IMG/VR virus record: IMGVR_UViG_3300037422_000484
Coordinates: 1-24,413 of that record
Source: a virus
Lineage: Duplodnaviria; Caudoviricetes
Reading direction: 5' to 3' (one strand)
Length of the DNA: 24,413 nt
Below, in pieces: positions 3 to 24,413 of the stretch. How positions within the stretch are numbered: the stretch's first letter is position 1; each line of letters starts with the position of its first letter. The notes under the pieces are model-generated. The model searched no databases. It saw only the letters and a list, made by a program, of their open reading frames with translations, and had not been told where the DNA came from. A program made the translations under genes and the position numbers.

Positions 3-395
3 ACTAAATCGCAGCAAGAAGCGAAAGATCCTAAGGTGGAAAAACTGAAAGTTCTCTGGGTGCAGGCCGACAAACAGTTCTGGTCCAGTGATGATGTTCA
101 TTCCTATGTCCGGCATGAATTCAAAAAGGAATCGACGAATGATCTGACTGAGGAGGAATACACGAAGATCCGATCAGTTATAGCCGCAAACAGCAAGGCC
201 GCAGAGCCCATCACCAGCGAACAGATGGCCAAGCTCGTGGCACGGGCCGAGAAGAACGGGTGGGAGCAGGATCAATTCAACGCCATCTTCCCGATCGATT
301 ATCCAGGAAAGACGATCGGACGTCAGCAGCTCAAAACAATCTGGAATAAGGTCGGTATCGTCCAAAAGAAAGAGACATCTGGTGAGCAAAACTAA
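3..395 (+). CDS. 5'-truncated phage protein, possibly the C-terminal helical tail of a recombination/single-strand annealing protein
   Basis: Frame is open back to the window edge (TKSQQEAKDPKVEKL...). STNDLTEEEY and ITSEQMAKL resemble helical motifs in tails of phage ERF/Sak-type proteins; no catalytic domain is visible. Confidence 0.45.
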   Translation, partial: TKSQQEAKDPKVEKLKVLWVQADKQFWSSDDVHSYVRHEFKKESTNDLTEEEYTKIRSVIAANSKAAEPITSEQMAKLVARAEKNGWEQDQFNAIFPIDYPGKTIGRQQLKTIWNKVGIVQKKETSGEQN

Positions 396-12201: not shown

Positions 12202-12699
12202 ATGGCAGAGGGCAGAAAAACGGGCGGACGGGATTTCCAGCCCGGCAACACGTTCAGCAAAGGGCGGGAGCGCATTCCCGATGATCTAAAGATGGCGCGG
12301 GCATTCAATAAGACTGAATTCGAGCGAATCGCGAATAAATTCCTCTATATGCATCCAAATACGCTGAAGGAATATCTTGCGTCGCAGCAGATATCTCCGG
12401 AGGCGAACATGGCGGAGATGATGACGGCATCCGTCATGATTAATTGCATGAATCTAGGATGCTATAAACGACTCAATGCCATCTTGGATCGGGTAATCGG
12501 TCCGGTACCTCGGCAGATCTCGGGCCCGCAGGGCGGTCCAATCCCGTTCTCCATGTCTTTGGGTAGATTGACCGACGAGGAGGCCCAGGAGCAGATCGAG
12601 GATATTTTGGAGCATCTCGATCGATACTCGAAGCGGAAGGCCTTCATTGATAGAGCACGCCGAACAACTCGCGGAAATCGAGAAACTAAGGCAGTCTAG
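12202..12699 (+). CDS. terS: terminase small subunit
   Basis: GRKTGGR.FQPGN...GR N-terminus and ISGPQGGPI motif; directly upstream of TerL. Confidence 0.75.
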   Translation: MAEGRKTGGRDFQPGNTFSKGRERIPDDLKMARAFNKTEFERIANKFLYMHPNTLKEYLASQQISPEANMAEMMTASVMINCMNLGCYKRLNAILDRVIGPVPRQISGPQGGPIPFSMSLGRLTDEEAQEQIEDILEHLDRYSKRKAFIDRARRTTRGNRETKAV

Positions 12700-14167
12700 G
12701 CCAGCCCTCGTTCAGCTTGAGCAGTTGATCCATCTCCGGGACGCCACGACGACGGATCTGTTGGCGAGTTTTGTGGAAGTCGCATGGAGGATTATTGAGC
12801 CCTCCACGAAGCTGCTCTGGAACTGGCACCATGAACTGATCTGCGAATATCTGACCGCAGTTTATGAGGGACAGATCCGTCGCCTTATTATCAATATGCC
12901 GCCCAGATACATGAAGTCGATTCTGGCTACGATTACATTCCCGGTGTGGTGTTGGACCAAAAAGCCCTCGATGCGATTCATATTCGCATCGTACTCCCAG
13001 TCCCTCTCTACAAGGCATTCGGTCGATAGGCGTCGACTCATTGAGTCGGCATGGTATCAGACCGCCTATGGCGATAAGGTATGTCTGGCCTCAGATCAGA
13101 ACTTGAAAATGGAGTTCGAGAACACTAAGCGCGGGCATATGATTGCCACCTCAATGGGCGGAACCGTTACCGGAAAGGGCTGTGACGTGCTCGTGGTGGA
13201 TGACGCCCATAATCCAAAACTGGCTCAATCAGAGAAACAAAGACAGTCTGCTATTGACGCATTCGATAAGACGTTTAGCTCGCGACTCGATGATAAGCGG
13301 GAAGGACGTATGATCATCGTGATGCAGCGTCTCCATGAGAAGGATCTCTCCGGACACCTTCTAGCCAAGGATGCGGACTGGGAGCACCTCATGATCCAAG
13401 GCATTAATGAGACGAAACGGGCGATCGTCTTTCCGATCTCGAAACGCAGAAAGACCCTACCGGTTGGCCATATTCTCCATCCCGAGCGAGAAAGCGCGAC
13501 TGAGCTCCAAAGACAGAAGGAGACCATGGGCTCCTATGAATTCTCGGGCCAGTATCAGCAGCGGCCCACTCCCGGAGAGGGCGGCATCATCAAGAACCAT
13601 TGGTGGCGATATTGGCGGCCTGAGACGCTCCCGGACACTTGGCACCAGACGATTCTGACCATGGATGCGAATTTCAAGGAGACAAAGAAGGGGTCCTTCG
13701 TTGTGATTCAGGTGTGGGGGCGCCACAAAGCGGATAAGTATCTGCTCGATCAAGTCAGGGGCCGATGGGACTTCCCCCGATCGGTGAAAGAACTGAAGAA
13801 TCTCATCCTCAAATGGCCTCGCGCGCACTCACGCTATATAGAAGAGAAAGCGAATGGGCCCGCCATCATCGCGTCGCTGAGAACCGAGATTCCGGGCATC
13901 ATTCCGCTGAAAGCAGATGTCAGCAAGGAAGCGCGGGCGAGCGCGGCCTCGCCACAGGTCGAATCCGGAAACTGTTATCTACCGGATCCGTCGCTTTATC
14001 CGTGGGTGAAAGACTTCCTACTCGAGTTCGAATTCTTCCCGGTCGGCGAAAACGACGATCAGGTCGACGCCGCAGTATATGGAATCCTAAAGCTCTCAAA
14101 CATCAGCATCACCGCCTCGAAGGGCGTGGTGCTTCCTCAAATGGGCAAGACAAGCAATTGGAGGTAG
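12647..14167 (+). CDS. terL: terminase large subunit
   Basis: LIINMPPRYMKS (Walker A), TGKGCDVLVVDD (Walker B), MQRLH, IEEKANG, DDQVDA nuclease motif. Confidence 0.96.
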   Translation: MIEHAEQLAEIEKLRQSRPALVQLEQLIHLRDATTTDLLASFVEVAWRIIEPSTKLLWNWHHELICEYLTAVYEGQIRRLIINMPPRYMKSILATITFPVWCWTKKPSMRFIFASYSQSLSTRHSVDRRRLIESAWYQTAYGDKVCLASDQNLKMEFENTKRGHMIATSMGGTVTGKGCDVLVVDDAHNPKLAQSEKQRQSAIDAFDKTFSSRLDDKREGRMIIVMQRLHEKDLSGHLLAKDADWEHLMIQGINETKRAIVFPISKRRKTLPVGHILHPERESATELQRQKETMGSYEFSGQYQQRPTPGEGGIIKNHWWRYWRPETLPDTWHQTILTMDANFKETKKGSFVVIQVWGRHKADKYLLDQVRGRWDFPRSVKELKNLILKWPRAHSRYIEEKANGPAIIASLRTEIPGIIPLKADVSKEARASAASPQVESGNCYLPDPSLYPWVKDFLLEFEFFPVGENDDQVDAAVYGILKLSNISITASKGVVLPQMGKTSNWR

Positions 14168-14198
14168 ACTATATTGAATTGTCTTTAGCCTCACTCCC

Positions 14199-14216
14199 GT
14201 GACACGAAGGTGATAC
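14199..14216 (+). promoter_or_regulatory. tandem heptamer site GTGACAC-GAAG-GTGATAC
   Basis: Overlaps the portal RBS and abuts ATG 14217; 17/19 identical to the 12114-12132 minus-strand copy. Confidence 0.6.
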
Positions 14217-15533
14217 ATGCCGAAAAAGAGCCAAGTTGAGAAACAGGCATCGTTGGATCTGCGCGAGCTGGGCATCACCGGTCTCAAGAGATTCGGTGGC
14301 CAGATATTCGAGGAGTTCCTGAAGGAGCTCCACGGTACACGAGGGCTCTGCATCTATAGGGAGATGCGCTACAACGAACCAATCATAGGCGGCATGCTTT
14401 TCGTCATCGAGATGATGATCCGCCAAACAGAGTTTCATATCGTGGCCGCCGACCAGAGCAACGAGGGCATGCAGGCGAAGCTATTCGTTGAGTCCGTTCT
14501 AGACGATATGTCGATGAGCTGGAACGACACGATGTCTGAGATCCTCTCGATGCTCCCATACGGATTCGCGCCGCATGAAATGATCTGGAAGCGAAGAAAC
14601 GGCGAATCGCGTAATCCAGTCGAACATTCAAAATTCTCCGACGGCATGATCGGCTGGGCGAAGCTCCCGATTCGGGCCCAGGAGAGCGTCTTCGAGTGGA
14701 TCTATAACGAGGAAATCGATGAGCCTGTAGGCTATGTCCAGGTCGCGGAGACGGATGGAAAGCGACGTGAGATCCCGATGGAGAAGACGTTGCTCTTCCG
14801 CACGACCTCGAACAAGAATTCGCCAGAGGGTATGTCGGTCCTTCGAAACGTCTATCGTCCTTGGTACTTCAAAAAGCTGATTGAGAATCTAAGAGGAATC
14901 GGTATTGAGCGAAACTTGGCGGGACTTCCTGTTGCTTGGGTACCGGCACGACTTCTCTCTACCGACGCGTCCCCGGAGGATAAGGCTGCGATTCAAAATA
15001 TCGAAAAGATCGTGAAGAACATCAAGACCGATGAGCAGATGGGGCTGGTCCTTCCTCTCGAATATGATGAGCATGGCAACAAGCTTTGGGACTTTCAGTT
15101 ACTCTCCGCAGGTGGTGGACAGTCCGGCAAATCGATGGACATCAACGAGACCATCAACAGTTACGATCAGCGGATGGCCCTCACCCTCCTGACCGACTTC
15201 ATACTTCTGGGGCATGAAAAAGTGGGAAGCTTCGCGCTGGCGAGCTCAAAGACCCGATTATTCTCCGCAGCCATCGGGGCCTGGATGGACGCCATCGCTT
15301 CCGTGTTTAACCGGACCGGAATTCCAAAGCTGTGTAAGCTGAATGGAATCCCTCCGGAGCTCTATCCCAGGATGAATCATGGGGATATCGAGACCGTCGA
15401 TCTCGTCGAGCTGGGAGACTACATCTCTAAGCTGGCGGGCGTCGGAATGCCGCTCTTCCCGGATGACAAGGTTGAGGCATATCTCAAATCTCAGGCAGGA
15501 ATTCCCATCTCCCAGGAGACTGATGAGCTGTGA
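14217..15533 (+). CDS. portal protein (DUF935 / Mu gp29-like)
   Basis: YGFA.HE..W, SPEG.SVLR.VYRPWYFKK, IER..AGLP, GSFALA; follows TerL. Confidence 0.92.
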   Translation: MPKKSQVEKQASLDLRELGITGLKRFGGQIFEEFLKELHGTRGLCIYREMRYNEPIIGGMLFVIEMMIRQTEFHIVAADQSNEGMQAKLFVESVLDDMSMSWNDTMSEILSMLPYGFAPHEMIWKRRNGESRNPVEHSKFSDGMIGWAKLPIRAQESVFEWIYNEEIDEPVGYVQVAETDGKRREIPMEKTLLFRTTSNKNSPEGMSVLRNVYRPWYFKKLIENLRGIGIERNLAGLPVAWVPARLLSTDASPEDKAAIQNIEKIVKNIKTDEQMGLVLPLEYDEHGNKLWDFQLLSAGGGQSGKSMDINETINSYDQRMALTLLTDFILLGHEKVGSFALASSKTRLFSAAIGAWMDAIASVFNRTGIPKLCKLNGIPPELYPRMNHGDIETVDLVELGDYISKLAGVGMPLFPDDKVEAYLKSQAGIPISQETDEL

Positions 15534-16549
15534 TTCATCTGATATCCAAAGCGAAGCGTAAGCAGGAACGGCAATTCGACGCCGCGAATGGGCGCGCGGC
15601 AATCATGTCGCGGGCCGTATCGGCCTCTCTGACGAAGGGGCTCATCACCTTCAAAAACAAGGTTGAAGTCGAGCGTCTATCGGAATTTCTAGCGAAACAG
15701 GATCTCGAAGGGACGGTCGAATCTATTCCATGGCAGATTCTGCCTGATCGGCTTAACTTATTGGGCCCGTCCGTATTGGCCGGAATTACTGACGGCGGTG
15801 ATATCGCGCATCAGTTTCTCCCTCAGCACATGCAGCCCGATATCCGGTTCGATAGCAGAAACCCCAGGATCGACAAAATCCTCCAGCGCAGGGTCGGAAC
15901 CCTCATCGGAGATATCACCGAGGAATCCCGGGCGGAGGTTAGATCAGTGGTTCGGCAGGTTATCGATACCGGCATGCCGCTCTCGGCCGCCTCAAATAGG
16001 ATCCGAGATGTGGTTGGACTGACCGAACAGCAATCAATCGCCATTATGAACTTCCGAAATGCATTGGAATCCGGTGCTTATAGTGCCCTCACCCAAAATC
16101 AGAGATCGGTCGTGGCTCCTAGGATGTTCTTCGAGGAAGGGAAAAAGATAAATCTGCAGGATCGGGCTGTCCGAGCGCGGTTCAATCGCATAGTGGGACA
16201 GAAGGATATGGATAGACTAGTGGATGCCTACGCTGAACGATTGCTGCGGCACCGGTCCGAGAATATCGCCCGCACGGAATCGTTCCAGGCCATAAATGAA
16301 GGGCAGCGCGAATTCTGGAGCCAAGCTGATGAGCAGGGCATCCTCGGGGATAACGTGCGTAAGGAATGGATCATTGATCCTGTGACCGCGTGCGAGCTCT
16401 GTCGCCCTGTGAACGGGCAACGAGTGCGGCTAAATGAGATGTATCAGACACCCATTGGGCCGGTGATAGGCCCCACCCTCCATCCCAGCTGTAATTGCAT
16501 GGAGGCTTTAGTCTTTGTGAATTCCAGAAATCAGGAGGAGGCAGCATGA
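15530..16549 (+). CDS. minor head protein (Mu gpF / SPP1 gp7-like)
   Basis: RSENIARTE...KEW...CELC..VNG...PTLHPSCNC. Confidence 0.9.
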   Translation: MIHLISKAKRKQERQFDAANGRAAIMSRAVSASLTKGLITFKNKVEVERLSEFLAKQDLEGTVESIPWQILPDRLNLLGPSVLAGITDGGDIAHQFLPQHMQPDIRFDSRNPRIDKILQRRVGTLIGDITEESRAEVRSVVRQVIDTGMPLSAASNRIRDVVGLTEQQSIAIMNFRNALESGAYSALTQNQRSVVAPRMFFEEGKKINLQDRAVRARFNRIVGQKDMDRLVDAYAERLLRHRSENIARTESFQAINEGQREFWSQADEQGILGDNVRKEWIIDPVTACELCRPVNGQRVRLNEMYQTPIGPVIGPTLHPSCNCMEALVFVNSRNQEEAA

Positions 16550-17889
16550 GCGAGTCGGTGGTGAAGCAAGCGAAGGCCACAACGGATATTCAAACTCTCA
16601 TTTTTGATAAGGACATCTTCACCCGTGATGGGGCGACCCGGTGGGCGGAGGATCACGATTTCAGATTCGACAAGATTGATGAGACCGAGGACAGCTATCG
16701 GTTGAGGCAAAAGGATCCCGGGAGGTTCAAGACTTTTAGGACCATCTCTCTACGCGATGGCATCAAGGCCGTAGTCGCGAAGGACGGATCGGAGGTTGTC
16801 GAAAAAGGTTTTCTGAACGGAAATCCTGAGGGCGGCATGCACGCCCACGTTCTTGACCGAAACGCGAAGAGGACGCTCCGGGATGGCGCCCATAGGCACG
16901 CGTTTCTCCTTCCGGATGGGGGAATCATTGTCACCGAAGAGAATGGCGAGCATGTCCATGATCTCGAATCCGTGGATGATGACTATAGTCTCGGATTCGA
17001 TCCTGGAAGCCGCGCAGAGCACTCCCATAAGGTCATGATGAACATCGAGGGCGAGACGATCGAGACCGAGGCGGGCGGAAACCATGAGCATGAGCTTATG
17101 GCGGAGACGTCTGGGTTTGATGGGCTCCACACGCACGAGCTCGTGCTCGAGGACGGCACTCGCCTCATATCCTTGACCCCTGGAGATTGGGTTAAGCATC
17201 GCGGCGCTCCTGCGTTTGATTTGCCGCCATCTCCACCGGCTAGCGGATACACCAGCGTAATGGCTCAGGCCATCGCGCAGGCCCTCATGCTCGTCGGCAA
17301 AGAAAGGGAAGGTGTCGAAATGGCTGAGGTCAGCGACGCTGATGCCGTCGCGCTCGCAGCACTTGGCATTTCGGTAGCCAAGGAGGGATATGGAAGCCCT
17401 CCCCATGAGCAATCCGAGGAAAAGAAGAAAAAAAAGAAGCGCAAGAAACGCGCAGACATGGTGCGTTCTGAGATCGAAAAAGAGTGGGAGCACGAGGATG
17501 CACCTACTGAATCGAAACTGCTCTCACGGGTTCGCATTCTCAAGAAACGAAAGCGTGATCAGGTCATCTATGGTGTTGTTTTGGAACCGGAAACGGTCGA
17601 TGCACAGGGAGACATTATCTCGAAAGAGGAGATAGGTCGGGCGATGCATTTCTATATGAAGAACTCTCGCGTCGTTGGGATGCGCCACAAGGATGTTGCG
17701 AACGGCACCACCGTTGTGGAATGCTTCCAGGCGCCACACGACATCATCGTGGGAAGTCAGGTCGTCAAAGACGGATCATGGGTTCTCGGCGTCCACGTGG
17801 AGGACAAAAAAACATGGGGACACATCGAGAGCGGAGCCCTCAACGCGTTCAGCGTCGGAGGATGGGCGTTGCGAAGACCTGAAAGATAG
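16546..17889 (+). CDS. XkdF-like prohead serine protease with N-terminal accessory and His-repeat domains
   Basis: SD AGGAGG and ATGA overlap; C-terminal VIYGVVLEP..VDAQGD...H...VE...GSWV...W..I..G.LNAFSVGG. Confidence 0.88.
   Translation: MSESVVKQAKATTDIQTLIFDKDIFTRDGATRWAEDHDFRFDKIDETEDSYRLRQKDPGRFKTFRTISLRDGIKAVVAKDGSEVVEKGFLNGNPEGGMHAHVLDRNAKRTLRDGAHRHAFLLPDGGIIVTEENGEHVHDLESVDDDYSLGFDPGSRAEHSHKVMMNIEGETIETEAGGNHEHELMAETSGFDGLHTHELVLEDGTRLISLTPGDWVKHRGAPAFDLPPSPPASGYTSVMAQAIAQALMLVGKEREGVEMAEVSDADAVALAALGISVAKEGYGSPPHEQSEEKKKKKKRKKRADMVRSEIEKEWEHEDAPTESKLLSRVRILKKRKRDQVIYGVVLEPETVDAQGDIISKEEIGRAMHFYMKNSRVVGMRHKDVANGTTVVECFQAPHDIIVGSQVVKDGSWVLGVHVEDKKTWGHIESGALNAFSVGGWALRRPER
16831..17145 (+). 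repeat. six HxH peptide repeats within the protease gene
   Basis: GMHAH, GAHRH, GEHVH, AEHSH, GNHEH, GLHTH. Confidence 0.8.
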
Positions 17890-18025
17890 GTGACAATATA
17901 TCGGAGGGGGAGTTACCATTCCTAAGCGACTCTTCAATCTAGAAGCCCTCGAGGTAAGCCTAGTACCCGAAGGCGCGAATGAGAAGAGATTCCTTCTCTT
18001 AAAACAGAAAAACGGGGGCGATCAA

Positions 18026-18796
18026 ATGCCGAACAAAGCAAACCTCGAGGAAGTTGTTAAGGGACTCCTCAGCACCGACATTGACGACGCGAAAGTCGAA
18101 GAGGTGCTCAAGGCAAAAGGGTATTCCGAGAAACAGATCCAGGTTTTGAAGGCCAAACTCAAACTTTTGGCCTCGGTGAAGGACGAGCTCCCCGCGGGCG
18201 TGAATGTCCTCAAAGATCTGGCCGAACTCTCCGGCCTCGAGTTGCCAGAAGTTGAGGTCGAAAAGAGCAAAAAAGAGCCGGCCGCAGAAACGGATCCGGC
18301 GCTCATCGATCTCGCGAAAGTCTCGAAGGAGCTCCAGCCTCAGGTTGCTGCTCTTATCCAGAAGAACAAAGAACTCGCCGAACAGGCGTCGCGAACCTCA
18401 GGCACTCTCGCCGAGGAAATCAGCCGCCGAATCACAAAAGAATTCATTCAAAAAGCCAAAACCGAACTTCCCGATGTCGCTCCCGATGCCGATGCATTCG
18501 GCCCGGTGATGAAGGAAGCCAAGGAGAAGCTAAGCGAAGCGCACTATACGCTTCTTGAGGCGGTTCTGAAGGCTGCGAACGCGAAAATCGCGGAAGGCGC
18601 TCTTTATGAGAATTTTGGAACCGGCCGAGCCGTCTCTGCCGGCACCGCAATGGGCAAGATTCAAGTCCTTGCCGAGAAGGTGGCGAAGGAAAAGAACATT
18701 TCTTACGCGTTGGCGGAGGTAGAGATCATCACGAAGACCGCGGAAGGTCAGAAACTCTACGAAGAATATCGCACTGAGAAAGAAGGAGCACGCTAA
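18026..18796 (+). CDS. capsid scaffolding protein (longer form may start at ATT 17918)
   Basis: K/E/A-rich helical protein between protease and capsid genes; GGGGG SD. Confidence 0.75.
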   Translation: MPNKANLEEVVKGLLSTDIDDAKVEEVLKAKGYSEKQIQVLKAKLKLLASVKDELPAGVNVLKDLAELSGLELPEVEVEKSKKEPAAETDPALIDLAKVSKELQPQVAALIQKNKELAEQASRTSGTLAEEISRRITKEFIQKAKTELPDVAPDADAFGPVMKEAKEKLSEAHYTLLEAVLKAANAKIAEGALYENFGTGRAVSAGTAMGKIQVLAEKVAKEKNISYALAEVEIITKTAEGQKLYEEYRTEKEGAR

Positions 18797-19170
18797 TGGC
18801 ATTCGAAGGACATGGAGTAAAATTGGTCGGCGGTGTTGCTGGTGCGGATCTTTCTGCCAAGCAATATTACGCGGTGAAACACAGCTCCAGCGGATTGGTG
18901 CTTGCCGGATCGGGCGAACAAATCGCCGGCATTCTTCAAGACAAGCCGGTCTTAGGCGATCCCGCTGAGGTCGCCAAGGGCGGTTGCGGGGTTTCGAAGG
19001 CGGTTGTTGGGGCTGCGGTTCTAAAGGGAGCCGAGCTCATGTCTAATGCGAGCGGAAAGCTCGTGACCGCAACTTCCACCAACAGGATTGTCGCCTACGC
19101 GATGGAAGCGGGCGGCGCCGATGGCGATATCATCACCGTTGACCTCGTCAACGCGGGAACCAAAGCATAA
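18796..19170 (+). CDS. capsid decoration/cement protein (DUF2190-like)
   Basis: AGADLS..QY.AVK...GILQDKP..G..A.V...G.SK...G....A.EA....GDII.V; precedes the major capsid gene. Confidence 0.82.
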   Translation: MAFEGHGVKLVGGVAGADLSAKQYYAVKHSSSGLVLAGSGEQIAGILQDKPVLGDPAEVAKGGCGVSKAVVGAAVLKGAELMSNASGKLVTATSTNRIVAYAMEAGGADGDIITVDLVNAGTKA

Positions 19171-19184
19171 TTTAGGGGGATCAA

Positions 19185-20138
19185 ATGCCGCAACCTACCA
19201 AGAGTGATGTTCATGTTGACCGGCCGCTAACCAACATGTCCGTTGCGTTCCTTCAGGACCAACGGGATTTTGTGGCGTCACGGGTCTTCCCGATGCTTCC
19301 GGTGGCGAAGCAGTCGGATCAGTTCTTCGTCTACGATAAAAAGCAATGGTTCCGTTCGGACTCGCAGAAGCGGGCCCCCGGAACCCCGTCTGCGGGCAGC
19401 GGCTACACGCTGAGCACGGATTCGTACCGTGCCGACGTGTGGGCGGTGCACAAGGATGTGGACGATCAGACTCGAGCTAACGCGGATGTTCCGATCAACG
19501 TCGACCGCGAAGCCGTGGACTTCGTGATGCAGCAGCAGCTCATCCGCAAGGAAAAGGAATGGATGGCCGCGTACTTCACGACCGGCATCTGGTCCTCGGA
19601 CTTTACACCAGGTACCCTGTGGAGTGCAGCTTCGAGCGATCCGATCAAGGATGTTCGAGCCCAGAAGCGGGTGATTTTTCGTCAAACTGGACGCATGCCG
19701 AACAAGCTTGTGGTTTCGCCGGACGTCGATGACATCCTGAAAGATCATCCGACCATCGTTGAGCGCATCAAATACACCCAGTTCGCGGACGTCGATAATC
19801 AAATCCTCGCGCGTCTGCTCGGCCTGGAAGAGTATTTGGTCGCGAACGCCATCGAGGACATGGAGCCCGAGAGCGAGGGCGGAGTGGAAGATCTTCAGCA
19901 TCTCGCTAGCAAGGACGCTCTCTTGGTATATGCGGCGCCTCGGCCCGGAATCATGACACCATCAGCCGGATACACGTTCGCGTGGACCGGACTCTTCGGC
20001 GCCAGTGAGCAAGGCAACCGAATCAAGCGCTTCCGCATGGAAGAGCTCGCCTCGGATCGCGTCGAGAGCGAAATGGCGTGGGACCTCAAGCTCGTATCTC
20101 CTGAACTCGGGATCTTTTTCAACAACGCCATCGCGTAA
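19185..20138 (+). CDS. major capsid protein (HK97 fold, lambda gpE-like group)
   Basis: VHVD.PLTN.SVA......FVA..VFP..PV.KQS, WS...SDPI.D, PSAGYTF; size and position fit. Confidence 0.9.
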   Translation: MPQPTKSDVHVDRPLTNMSVAFLQDQRDFVASRVFPMLPVAKQSDQFFVYDKKQWFRSDSQKRAPGTPSAGSGYTLSTDSYRADVWAVHKDVDDQTRANADVPINVDREAVDFVMQQQLIRKEKEWMAAYFTTGIWSSDFTPGTLWSAASSDPIKDVRAQKRVIFRQTGRMPNKLVVSPDVDDILKDHPTIVERIKYTQFADVDNQILARLLGLEEYLVANAIEDMEPESEGGVEDLQHLASKDALLVYAAPRPGIMTPSAGYTFAWTGLFGASEQGNRIKRFRMEELASDRVESEMAWDLKLVSPELGIFFNNAIA

Positions 20139-20420: not shown

Positions 20421-21045
20421 CGCCGACAAGCTATTGAGCAACGAGGAGATCGAGTATTTCCTCGCCCAGGAAGGCTCCGTCTCGCGTGCGGCCAGGCTTG
20501 CCGTCACAACCCTCATCGCTAAATTCTCACGCTTAGCTGACGAGTCAGTCGGCCAAGTCAAAGTCAATTTTTCAAAGCGCGTCGAAAACCTCATGTCGCT
20601 CTCGAAGGAACTCGAGAAGCGGGCCGCTGTCGTAGGCGTGGAGTGGATAGCCGGAGGCATCACCCACACCGACAAAGCGAAGTCCGCCGACGATCCTGAT
20701 ATCGTACAGCCATTCTTCGACCGCGAGCTTCACAATAAGCGTAGCCCGACCGGAGGGGAATCCGGGGGCGATCCAAAATTCATCGAGAAGGAGTCTACCG
20801 TGGAGGCGAACACGATTTCGGTACCCTCTGGCGCCACCCAGATCGAGGTGCTCCTCGCATTCCCGCAGGTCAGCGCCGACTACATCATCCATGCGCAGTG
20901 GGAAAACTCGGTCGACCCGAGTCCGCAGTTCCAGAACATCGTCGTCATCGACAAGCAAAATGACAGGTTCACGCTGGCGTGGAACTCTGAGCTTCTGACC
21001 TCTAACTACAAGATCTCGTATTCGATCGAGGAGAAGAGGGTGTGA
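20344..21045 (+). CDS. head-tail adaptor fused to a C-terminal beta-rich (H-type-lectin-like) domain
   Basis: WSY...DAVRLLVGDTD....LSNEEI adaptor-type N-terminus; GGESGG linker; about 80-aa beta domain. Confidence 0.72.
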   Translation: MGWSYSNSPQKSDRDAVRLLVGDTDSADKLLSNEEIEYFLAQEGSVSRAARLAVTTLIAKFSRLADESVGQVKVNFSKRVENLMSLSKELEKRAAVVGVEWIAGGITHTDKAKSADDPDIVQPFFDRELHNKRSPTGGESGGDPKFIEKESTVEANTISVPSGATQIEVLLAFPQVSADYIIHAQWENSVDPSPQFQNIVVIDKQNDRFTLAWNSELLTSNYKISYSIEEKRV

Positions 21046-24000
21046 TGCTGAAGATCCTTTTATTCATACTCACCGCAATAGCCATCGGATTCCCCCGGCA
21101 GGCCTTGCCGGGGGACTTCTTCCAGCAGGGAGCGCTCATCCAGCAGGCCGCGGTGATAACGACCAGCGGCGGCAACACCACGCTGAGCTCGGTATCCCGG
21201 ACGAACCAAGTCTTCGTCGGATCCATGAACCACACGGTGACGCTACCGAACGCCACGAATCTCGTCGAATTCCGATCTTTCAAGATACACAATCGCTCGA
21301 CCGGAACCGTGACGGTAAACTTTTCGGACGCATCCTTGGCTCAGACGCTCTCTCCCGGGACCGACGCCGAGTTTCTGGCCACCAATATCGGGACCCCCGT
21401 TGGAGTCTGGTCAGGTGATTTGCCAACCCCAGATCTGGAAGCGATCGGATCCGATCTTCTTTTCGTCCCTGACGATACATTTGATATTGGCGCCACAACA
21501 TCTGGGCGGCCGAGCATTGTCTACTCTGGTACTGGGTGGAATATCGCGAACAGTGGGCTTTCTGCGGATTCCGAGGGCCTGACCTTCACAACCCAGGCAG
21601 GAGTCCCAGCTACTCCGGCGGCGGGGAAGCTGAAAGTCGGAGCAAAGACGAGTGGGCACTTGTCTCTCGTGAATAGCTCTGGAGATGAGCGGCTGACCGC
21701 GATCTATGAGACCGCCGGAACCGATAACCGGATCGTTAGGTGGAGCACCGGAGGAGAGATCCAGGATAGCCTCATCGAGGTACCCGACACCGGAAGTCTC
21801 CTCCAGGTCGTGAACCTGCCAGTCGCTTCGCTCTTCCATCAGGTGGAGAACACTTCCATTGTCTCGGGATCGGACGCCTACGTGCGCGCGGCCGCGGCCG
21901 CGGGAGATGCCTATATCGATATCGATGGCGGTGGCCAATATCAACTGGGCTCCCCTGAGGGGCTCGACGTCTTCGATCTCCGCCACGGGACCCTCACGGG
22001 AGGCACTAAATTTCTCCGTGTGGATGGGCCAGCCGACAATATCCAAGTCGGAAACACAGCTGGTGGATACGCAGTCTTCTATGGACCACTCAGCGGATCC
22101 CAGCCATCAGATATCGAGTTTAGGAGCGCCGTCTCCGATGTGAACGTATCGATTGAGGACACCGGCGAGGTTGATATTCTCCGCGGCGTTCTCGATATGA
22201 ACGTCCACAAGGTGGTCAATGTCGTTGATCCCACTTCCGCACAGGACGCCTCCACGAAGGCATATTCGGATGCGGGGGATGCGGCAGTATCGCTCTCAGC
22301 GATACTCCGAAACGGTACTCAGGCTCCAACCGCGAACATTTCTTGGGGAGGTTTCCGGATCACGAGTTTAGCCGATCCGGTGGGCGCACAGGATGCGGCC
22401 ACGAAATTCTACACGGACGTCGAAATCTCGACTCTTTCCGCAGCCTCTATGCTTCTTAATGGCAGCCAAGCCATGACCGGAAACATGAATCTTGGTGGGA
22501 ATTTGATCACTAGCGTGGCGGATCCCTTGGCCGCGCAGGATGCGTCCACAAAGGCCTATACCGATGCCGGAGATGCTACGGTTTCGCTTTCAGCCATCCT
22601 TCGGAACGGCACACAGGCCCCGACGGCAGATATCCCACTTGGAGGATTCAAGATCACGGGGCTCGCAATCCCAACACTCGCAACCGATGGAGCCAATAAA
22701 GGCTATGTCGATGGAGAAGTCGCAACGCTTTCCGCCGCATCGATGCTTTTAGATGGAAGCCAGGCCATGACGGCCGCCATGAATCTTGGTGGAAATCTCA
22801 TCACAAACGTCGCGGATCCGCTGGCGGCCCAGGACGCATCGACGAAGGCATACACAGATGCAGGAGATGCGGCCGTATCGCTTTCCGCGATCCTAAGAGA
22901 CGGATTACAGGCCCCCACCGCGAATATTCCTTGGGGCGGATTCAAAATCACAGGTTATGGCACCCCGACTGCGGCGGACGACGTCACAGATAAGGCTTAC
23001 GTGGATGCCGGGGATGCCGCTGGATCATCGGCTGCGATTCTTCGGGACGGAACACAACCGCCTACGGCAGATATTTCGTGGGGGAACTTCCGGATTACAT
23101 CATTGGCGGATCCTACGGCCGCCCAGGACGCGGTAACCCGCAGCTATGCGGATACCAATTATCTGCAGGTCGACGGCGGCAACTCAATGCTAGCGACCCT
23201 CAATGTCGTTACATCCGCTGGCCCCCATCTCGTGCTCGAGGACGGCGGGACCTTTGGAACCAACGCAGACCCATATCTGTCGCTTCAGGATAACCTCTCT
23301 GAGGGCGCTCGGATTGGGTTCACAAGCCCGACATCTCTAAATCTGGGAATCACGAATCTGCTCGCGGGCTCTATTGTTCTCAACACTAACTCAATTCAGA
23401 TCGCAGATTTCACATCCACGGCGCTGAACATGGCGACGCCGGTTAATATCACCCTCGGCGACGATCTGCTCGCGGTCACCGATCCCATGACTAAATTCAT
23501 GATTCTCGAGGATGACGTCGGATCCTATGTCGCCTTCCGAAGGCCAGATAGCATTTCATCTGGATTTATCTGGAACGAGGGAACAGATGGAGACGGGGCC
23601 CAGCTCCGATATACGTGGACCGGGACCCCATCGACGTCCCAATTCGAGTTTCGATCAAACGCGGCCTCGCTCGCAGCTTTCGCTGGTGATGGAGCGTTCA
23701 CATTTGGCACTGGATCCAAAGCAGAGATGATCCTCTCCTCTGGAGCCACAAACACATCTGTTGTCCGGATGGGGAATAATGATGGCGCTCTCTCGCTGTC
23801 TGGGGATTTGAGCAGCATCCTGGGAGGTAACGCACTCCTCTTTGGGTCCGCGCATTTGACCCGCGCCGGGGACATCGCCCTTCGTAACGCCACGACAGAA
23901 ATTCTGACCTATGACCACTCAGCGCTCAGCCTGACGTTCGGATCCACGGCCACAGACGATTACTATTTCTCATCGGCTGGTGCTGTATCGGCAAACATCT

Positions 24001-24413
24001 TTCACTCCCAGAACGACGCTCGGCTGGCAATACACGGTGGAAGCGTAGCGGGATCAGGGATCCGATTGTTCCTATATGGGGGAGCGCACGCAACGCAAGC
24101 AAATGATTTCAGCTTTGAATCGGGATCGCAAATCGTTCTGTCTTGGGACGACAGCGCGTCCACTATCCAGTATGGACACAACTCAAGCTATATTCACAAC
24201 TTCAATGGCGCGGTATCTCTGACCGGACGTTTAGGCATCGCGGACGGTACGGAGGCTTTGCCGGGACTCTATTGGACCGCGGACACTGATACAGGGCTTT
24301 ACCGATCCGGCGCGAACGCATTTTCCGCTGTGTCGGGTGGAGCCGCAAAGTTTCAAGTCACGGCAACAGGGCTCCGTCTTCTGGGAAATGCCATAAACAA
24401 GGTGCAGATTTTC
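21045..24413 (+). CDS. large trimeric fibre/adhesin-like protein, 3'-truncated (>=1123 aa, not in ORF track)
   Basis: TGATG coupling; open to the window end; YadA-stalk-like repeats; GTEALPGLYW..DTDTGLYR fibre motif; signal-peptide-like N-terminus. Confidence 0.88.
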   Translation, partial: MLKILLFILTAIAIGFPRQALPGDFFQQGALIQQAAVITTSGGNTTLSSVSRTNQVFVGSMNHTVTLPNATNLVEFRSFKIHNRSTGTVTVNFSDASLAQTLSPGTDAEFLATNIGTPVGVWSGDLPTPDLEAIGSDLLFVPDDTFDIGATTSGRPSIVYSGTGWNIANSGLSADSEGLTFTTQAGVPATPAAGKLKVGAKTSGHLSLVNSSGDERLTAIYETAGTDNRIVRWSTGGEIQDSLIEVPDTGSLLQVVNLPVASLFHQVENTSIVSGSDAYVRAAAAAGDAYIDIDGGGQYQLGSPEGLDVFDLRHGTLTGGTKFLRVDGPADNIQVGNTAGGYAVFYGPLSGSQPSDIEFRSAVSDVNVSIEDTGEVDILRGVLDMNVHKVVNVVDPTSAQDASTKAYSDAGDAAVSLSAILRNGTQAPTANISWGGFRITSLADPVGAQDAATKFYTDVEISTLSAASMLLNGSQAMTGNMNLGGNLITSVADPLAAQDASTKAYTDAGDATVSLSAILRNGTQAPTADIPLGGFKITGLAIPTLATDGANKGYVDGEVATLSAASMLLDGSQAMTAAMNLGGNLITNVADPLAAQDASTKAYTDAGDAAVSLSAILRDGLQAPTANIPWGGFKITGYGTPTAADDVTDKAYVDAGDAAGSSAAILRDGTQPPTADISWGNFRITSLADPTAAQDAVTRSYADTNYLQVDGGNSMLATLNVVTSAGPHLVLEDGGTFGTNADPYLSLQDNLSEGARIGFTSPTSLNLGITNLLAGSIVLNTNSIQIADFTSTALNMATPVNITLGDDLLAVTDPMTKFMILEDDVGSYVAFRRPDSISSGFIWNEGTDGDGAQLRYTWTGTPSTSQFEFRSNAASLAAFAGDGAFTFGTGSKAEMILSSGATNTSVVRMGNNDGALSLSGDLSSILGGNALLFGSAHLTRAGDIALRNATTEILTYDHSALSLTFGSTATDDYYFSSAGAVSANIFHSQNDARLAIHGGSVAGSGIRLFLYGGAHATQANDFSFESGSQIVLSWDDSASTIQYGHNSSYIHNFNGAVSLTGRLGIADGTEALPGLYWTADTDTGLYRSGANAFSAVSGGAAKFQVTATGLRLLGNAINKVQIF
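22191..23190 (+). repeat. seven 147-nt (49-aa) coding repeats
   Basis: IT..ADP..AQDA.TK.Y.D core; QD codons at 22242, 22389, 22536, 22830 and 23124, with diverged units between. Confidence 0.9.

Follow-up and report, generated by a model that had tools for sequence, protein, structure and literature searches.

We uncovered a probable, naturally split head-maturation protease of the XkdF type in the stretch of viral DNA analyzed here (hereinafter the window), a linear record of 24,413 bases from an uncultivated phage that is about 40% complete. The gene for the protease core stops shortly after the presumed catalytic Ser, and a module predicted to complete this core is encoded in the frame of the downstream scaffold gene. 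The long form of the scaffold that carries the module likely starts at the ATT codon at 17918, and the bulk scaffold likely starts in the same frame at ATG 18026. We place the probability of this reading as a whole at roughly 70%.

The split falls within a head module whose genes, all on the plus strand, follow the order terminase, portal, MuF-like protein, protease, scaffold, cement and major capsid protein. The neighbors coding for the terminase large subunit, the portal and the MuF-like head protein (12647..16549) lead into the protease-core gene (16546..17889), which codes for 447 aa from ATG 16546, preceded by the Shine-Dalgarno sequence (SD) GGAGGAGG (an ORF finder opens it at TTG 16495 instead), and combines an N-terminal cargo of ~325 aa with a C-terminal XkdF core. 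The latter (17524..17886; PF14550, Peptidase_S78_2) is recognized by a Pfam match of 83.1 bits (E 2e-23) against a curated cut-off of 24, by its modelled fold and by four residues, Asp26, His55, Trp86 and Ser110, that are invariant across 101 aligned cores. The His (17686-88) and the Ser (17851-53) are the presumed catalytic pair, and the core ends just 11 residues downstream of the Ser, with the C-terminus FSVGGWALRRPER followed by TAG (17887-17889). An earlier note on this DNA had this stop right but described it as lying just after FSVGG, from which it is 8 residues removed; its assignment of the core to the HK97-type (S78) proteases likewise gives way to the XkdF type, the core matching PF14550 and having no match to PF04586. 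A sequence search of solved structures found none matching the core or an S78 relative. Recoding of the TAG was considered and rejected: TAG ends 4 of 10 late genes and is an ordinary stop here. Downstream, the scaffold body (256 aa; 18026..18796) is assigned by its position and relatives, with no family found in Pfam or PHROG, and is followed by the genes for a capsid cement protein (PF09956) and the major capsid protein (PHROG 1005) at 18796..20138. Farther along, an ORF of at least 1,124 aa (21042-24413) leaves the window; it displays repeated DP..AQDA.TK.Y.D units and probably codes for a fibre-like virion protein.

The module was found in the apparent gap between the protease and scaffold genes. 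After TGA 17891-17893, which closes it upstream, the scaffold frame reads QYIGGGVT-IPKRLFNLEALEVSLVPEGANEKRFLLLKQKNGGDQ-M(18026) and contains no ATG, GTG or TTG from 17894 to 18025. The 36-aa extension preceding the Met (17918..18025) comprises a strand LFNLEALEVSLV (with its E at 17951), the loop PEGAN and a further strand RFLLLK, and corresponds to a module with the consensus EVSLV-x-x-G-A-N-x-x-x-F, which is absent from the ORF of the protease core. A profile of this module, built from 100 relatives with the window excluded, scored the extension at 49.6 bits (E 7e-15), against 4.1 bits for the next best of 706 six-frame segments; the match is thus not a chance one. In a natural XkdF single chain, residues 157-189 likewise align with the extension (hhalign P 96.4), and the 292-aa long form has 18 protein relatives, mostly of 261-312 aa, all of which open with the module under an M or a V. 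The long scaffold alone, used as a query, recovered no relatives in viral contigs or among cultured phages. In the relative L001, a further domain is inserted into the long scaffold form (L001:4415-5650), behind the module and ahead of the body. The split layout would explain how gene callers come to miss the long scaffold here, this contig being represented in the protein collection by the 256-aa form only.

Several claims of the earlier note are borne out by these results: that the missing strand is encoded in the apparent gap, in frame with the scaffold ATG; and that this frame has a stop at 17891 and no canonical start before 18026. The peptide is conserved too, the module being present across the clade in an ORF separate from that of the core. 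The note had also placed the EVS motif after the Ser in HK97-type proteases, and indeed EVSLV..GAN..F occurs after the Ser, inside the PF04586 match, in 5/5 single-chain proteases of this type scanned; among the module rows, 3/101 match PF04586, weakly (best E 0.095). The Glu of EVSLV is kept in 98/101 rows, a figure that is partly circular because most of the loci were fetched using the motif. In 9 of 10 isolates the position is instead occupied by H, F, Y, T, I or R, so Glu is not universal as a third triad residue.

The same module is seen in three natural topologies: strand-first in cis, core-first in cis and split. Cultured or annotated phage records matching the core number 127, of which 10 were examined. 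The strand-first form, with the module N-terminal in a protease-scaffold chain, is found in PBP180, Lactococcus phage 28201, Bacillus phage 0105phi7-2 and Dulem 37, and the core-first form in psiM2 ORF12. In five of the ten the module is on the next gene, with clear profile scores, as in the window, in Roseobacter phage CRP-6, Rhizobium phage RHph_TM16 and R21Y, and with weak scores and recognition by eye in Sonali and SM1. The core-first form further typifies a metagenomic clade (41 rows, L222 plus 40 aligned relatives; L222:103-1164 and P0140-P0180), which keeps a Met just after the module and constitutes a natural control for the split form. The profile of this clade matches the split core with P 99.7 and, further on, the split module with P 96.4. 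An alignment mixing a single-chain protein with split halves was discarded, the core's last strand having fallen on the module.

Both parts were present in 167 of the 188 loci examined, always on separate ORFs (167/167); in 17 of the remaining loci the core lay outside the available DNA, and in 4 a module match was absent. This count is biased towards the split, as 176 loci were fetched with the motif. Eleven others were fetched by the core or the capsid protein, one of them truncated, and the module is on the next gene in 9 of the 10 complete ones (two by eye); it was not seen in the exception (L088), which was likewise fetched without the motif. Moreover, among the long core relatives listed (120 of 651) none has the module in cis, and 119/120 end no more than 60 aa after the core. 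Among relatives, the core gene and the module ORF are 8 to 740 nt apart, and each of the three frame offsets occurs. By these comparisons, the two-gene split is the norm in the clade. We found no description of a split XkdF protease in the literature surveyed (mostly open-access papers); the 0105phi7-2 paper regards gp5 solely as a protease whose tail may be a scaffold (PMC10219371).

The predicted structures are in keeping with a fold distributed over two chains. The core-alone model (pLDDT 84) presents the assemblin/T4 gp21 barrel at moderate Z values: its best fold match is T4 gp21 (5JBL; Z 8.1, rmsd 3.8, 107 aligned) over 10..149 of that chain, and it aligns with the VZV protease only over 11..124. 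For the natural single chain L222 (pLDDT 79), the top three fold matches are the gp21, VZV (11..158) and HCMV (12..176) proteases, with that to gp21 (Z 8.8, rmsd 3.4, 120 aligned) covering 34..172. With Foldseek, neither model gave a match at E<=0.001, and gp21 ranked only 35th for that of L222. Given that L222 reaches position 172 of gp21 and the core only 149, the module appears to account for the part of the fold absent from the core. By the aligned ranges its position fits the strand of the third triad residue and the oxyanion loop, although the acid varies among isolates. We take the corresponding acid of T4 gp21 to be Asp168 and the third residues of the VZV and HCMV enzymes to be His139 and His157. 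In the assemblin of pseudorabies virus, the third triad His is reported on the strand after the catalytic Ser, with the next loop forming the oxyanion hole (PMC4498786); in gp245 of phage SPN3US the reported catalytic residues are H77, S153 and D178 (PMC5694885), and a form cut at residue 155, two past the Ser, is stated to be expected to be inactive (PMC7411985). The comparative and modelling evidence together support the proposal of the earlier note that the extension supplies the end that the protease fold lacks, borne by a long form of the scaffold, and we regard physical completion of the core by the module in trans as very probable.

Covariation across the two genes points in the same direction. 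Over 101 paired rows, the strongest signal between the genes joins the residue before His55 (17683-17688) to the residue after EVSLV (17966-17968); its MI z of 8.6 exceeds the highest value of 20 shuffles, 6.1. The pair follows a simple rule, Q/M going with D and other residues with P/K, which fits 94/101 rows (80 for the next-best column); the single-chain clade has M-D in 41/41, and 9/10 isolates conform by eye, the exception being psiM2. On the tree, one trait changes 12 times and the other 14 times, and an underpowered test on this tree yields 5 independent pairs on supported branches, of which ~4 are concordant and 0 opposite (p 0.125). The covarying pair is hence suggestive of a contact near the active site.

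The scaffold seems to have two starts. The downstream one, ATG 18026 with the internal SD GGGGG at 18014-18018 (18014..18028 in all), is the likely start of the bulk scaffold, and its context, GGGGG..ATCAA-ATG-CCG, resembles that of the major capsid gene. We grouped 183 motif loci into 71 clusters at 60% identity, 70 of them with enough sequence, and scored an internal start wherever a canonical start with an SD of -5 kcal/mol or better lay 20-38 codons after the motif. Such a start is kept in 61/70 clusters, against 8-18/70 in five equal control windows (p 1e-13 versus the best of these), which lends comparative support to the suggestion of the earlier note that this second SD and ATG make the bulk scaffold. 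No unusual mRNA fold was detected at either start (z 0.3-0.8).

The candidate start of the long form is ATT 17918..17920. It is preceded by the SD GGAGGGGGAG (17903..17912), whose duplex with the anti-SD, at -11.2 kcal/mol, is strong, as the earlier note had held, this SD being as good as that of the scaffold, and whose GGGGG run stands 7 nt before the ATT, a spacing identical to that before ATG 18026. The codon thus has what is looked for in an AUU-initiated gene, namely an SD at the proper spacing and no canonical in-frame start. An ATG occupies the equivalent position in four relatives (L092, L095, L021 and L022), and the best of these, L092 (37% identity), begins there with MPKRL, its ATG CCC AAG CGA CTG standing against ATT CCT AAG CGA CTC in the window. 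As far as the sequence can indicate, ATT 17918 is likely the best start candidate for the long form, and we think there is a good chance, about three in four, that it is used as such. The ATT is nevertheless private to the window: in all the other loci of the 183 a canonical start is present, mostly ATG, or else GTG or TTG. An ATT start was also absent from a further 106 distinct loci with the motif (of which 23 are split XkdF loci and some overlap the earlier ones), and neither a second copy of the start region in viral contigs nor a near-identical phage was found. In another relative (L015:3484-3510), a candidate ATA start with a strong SD is seen where close kin have GTG, with an in-frame GTG 6 codons upstream. 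The idea of IF3-sensitive control through ATT as a general mechanism is therefore not supported, such control being at most a lineage-specific setting.

Across the family, the long form lacks an ATG start in 18/70 clusters and has one available in 52/70. By a stricter start-codon count (in the initial one, 2 of 3 rows scored as having no start were narrow-window artefacts), non-ATG starts of the long form are seen in 17/69 of the other clusters versus 2/92 capsid and cement starts (p 2e-5) and 7/68 internal starts (p 0.04). The SDs of the long and internal starts do not differ in strength (Wilcoxon p 0.12). With ATG available in most clusters and no difference in SD strength, a weak start is not a family rule; weak long-form starts are, by these counts, enriched rather than required, with the ATT an extreme, private case. 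Initiation from AUU is reported to be 6-8 times weaker than from AUG in one E. coli reporter (PMC3592434) and to reach 5% of AUG in another case (PMC5499595); yields of this order would be right for a long form made in the minority. For comparison, the scaffold part made from the internal start in HFTV1 is reported as 7.8 times more abundant (bioRxiv 10.64898/2026.09.13.751334), and T4 proheads as having 72 copies of the protease to 576 of the scaffold (PMC9026906). That the ATT was selected to set the ratio is something we hold only tentatively, at somewhat less than even odds.

Split XkdF cores frequently sit at the C-terminus of much larger proteins, of up to 1,610 aa (P0020-P0139, the long relatives listed), whose cargo includes uracil-DNA glycosylase, ATP-dependent ligase, methyltransferase, Nudix, 2H phosphoesterase, ParB and ChaB domains; the median N-terminal cargo is ~440 aa among the 120 long relatives listed (of 651), a set selected on length. 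The cargo of the window (16546-17523) has His-rich repeats and a poly-Lys run, and its N-terminal domain looks similar, on visual comparison, to a section of the L001 scaffold ORF; searches of Pfam, PHROGs and the ESM Atlas yielded nothing useful, and no family was assigned to it. Such cargo-bearing split cores suggest that the XkdF core may serve as a head-loading tag, and, large cargo being common on them, cargo loading is possibly a second benefit of the split.

We envisage that the module would insert into the His/Ser core, thereby completing the barrel and the active site, and that the long scaffold form would co-assemble with the bulk scaffold, by which the core and its N-terminal cargo would be brought into the prohead and tethered there. 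As activity would need both chains, the enzyme would be switched on at the sites of scaffold accumulation. Owing to the weakness of the ATT, the long form would stay in the minority, with ATG 18026 making the bulk scaffold.

One alternative accepts the split but holds that the ATT was never selected to set a ratio, being either a recent change from ATG in this strain, whether neutral or harmful, or an error of assembly. The codon is unique among the 183 loci, a single substitution would turn it into the ATG that the best relative has, and the sole supporting contig, from the only public run with this DNA (X1), has a depth of ~8. No RNA run was listed as containing this DNA, which is no indication of its expression either way. 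This contig was assembled separately, differs in length and is identical to the window over 16500-19500, including the ATT, which argues against an assembler slip; it is not independent, however, being possibly the source of the window itself. On the other side, the SD, its spacing and all the conserved residues of the module are intact, the family as a whole has an excess of non-ATG starts here, and the candidate ATA of L015 may be a comparable case, albeit with its upstream GTG. On balance, we consider this account unlikely, at perhaps a fifth of the overall weight. A different objection concerns the module, which might be a docking hook only, loading the core and its cargo into the prohead, with the core active alone as a His/Ser dyad. 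The variable acid position among isolates, the good model of the core alone and the large, variable cargo, which makes loading a benefit in itself, are all compatible with this. Yet in assemblins the strand and loop to which the module maps bear the third triad residue and form the oxyanion hole, the covarying pair adjoins the His, and gp245 of SPN3US cut two residues after its Ser is stated as expected to be inactive (PMC7411985); we therefore deem a mere hook rather improbable beside completion of the core in trans.

Least plausible is a single-chain product, which would take read-through of the TAG together with +1 frameshifting on the G run, or else an initiation of the long form elsewhere, at ATC 17900 or at GTG 17890 with a +1 slip. 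Core-first single-chain relatives do exist, ATC 17900 has an SD of -6.9 kcal/mol, and GTG 17890 opens an 11-codon frame across the GGGGG run. However, with stops in both frames (TAG 17887 and TGA 17891) two rare events would be required, the variable length and frame offset of the intervening gaps speak against it, and where the window has its ATT the proteins of relatives begin with MP, making this route very improbable in comparison with two chains from two starts.

If the split operates as proposed, it would bear on a broader question. The off-state of head proteases before the prohead and their route of entry into it are only partly known, and a fold finished by the scaffold would offer one simple answer to both; it would also explain truncated-looking XkdF genes and their tolerance of large enzyme cargo. 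One may go further and conceive of a widespread two-gene protease class, in which the active site would form only once a minority weak-start isoform donates the last strand and oxyanion loop, acting as an assembly-gated switch and a cargo-loading beta-strand tag, with the start codon (ATG, GTG, TTG or ATT) as a selected dose dial; this generalization is speculative, and we would not yet bet on it. The ATT start of the window makes the two-isoform model unusually easy to see.

Among known systems, E. coli infC and pcnB illustrate that AUU behind a good SD is a usable, if weaker, start (PMC3592434, PMC5499595). For infC, feedback by IF3 has been demonstrated, whereas the ATT of the window is not conserved among relatives and its use as a start is predicted from sequence. 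T4 gp21 (5JBL), the herpesvirus assemblins and the S78 proteases (PF04586) share the predicted fold, the last of these also the motif after the Ser, but all are single chains where the window's enzyme is split. Closer are the single-chain XkdF protease-scaffolds (PBSX-like PBP180 ORF10, 28201 gp33, 0105phi7-2 gp5 and psiM2 ORF12), which have the same core, an EVS/HVS-x-V-x-x-A-A-N module, a scaffold-like tail downstream and a location between the portal/MuF and capsid genes. In these, core and module share a chain, the module leading except in psiM2, where it follows; in the window they are set apart by a stop codon and a fresh SD and start. Finally, in the nested genes lambda C/Nu3, HSV-1 UL26/UL26.5 and HFTV1 gp17/gp17.5, a protease-bearing long form is reported to be accompanied by an in-frame internal start that yields excess scaffold (bioRxiv 10.64898/2026.09.13.751334). 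The window shares with them, by its sequence, an in-frame internal start with its own SD (ATG 18026). Unlike them, its long form would contribute only the last ~30 residues of the protease, with the His and Ser on a separate gene, and would begin at an ATT. Judged from these comparisons, the locus is a variant of the nested protease/scaffold genes in which the split is family-wide and the ATT private.
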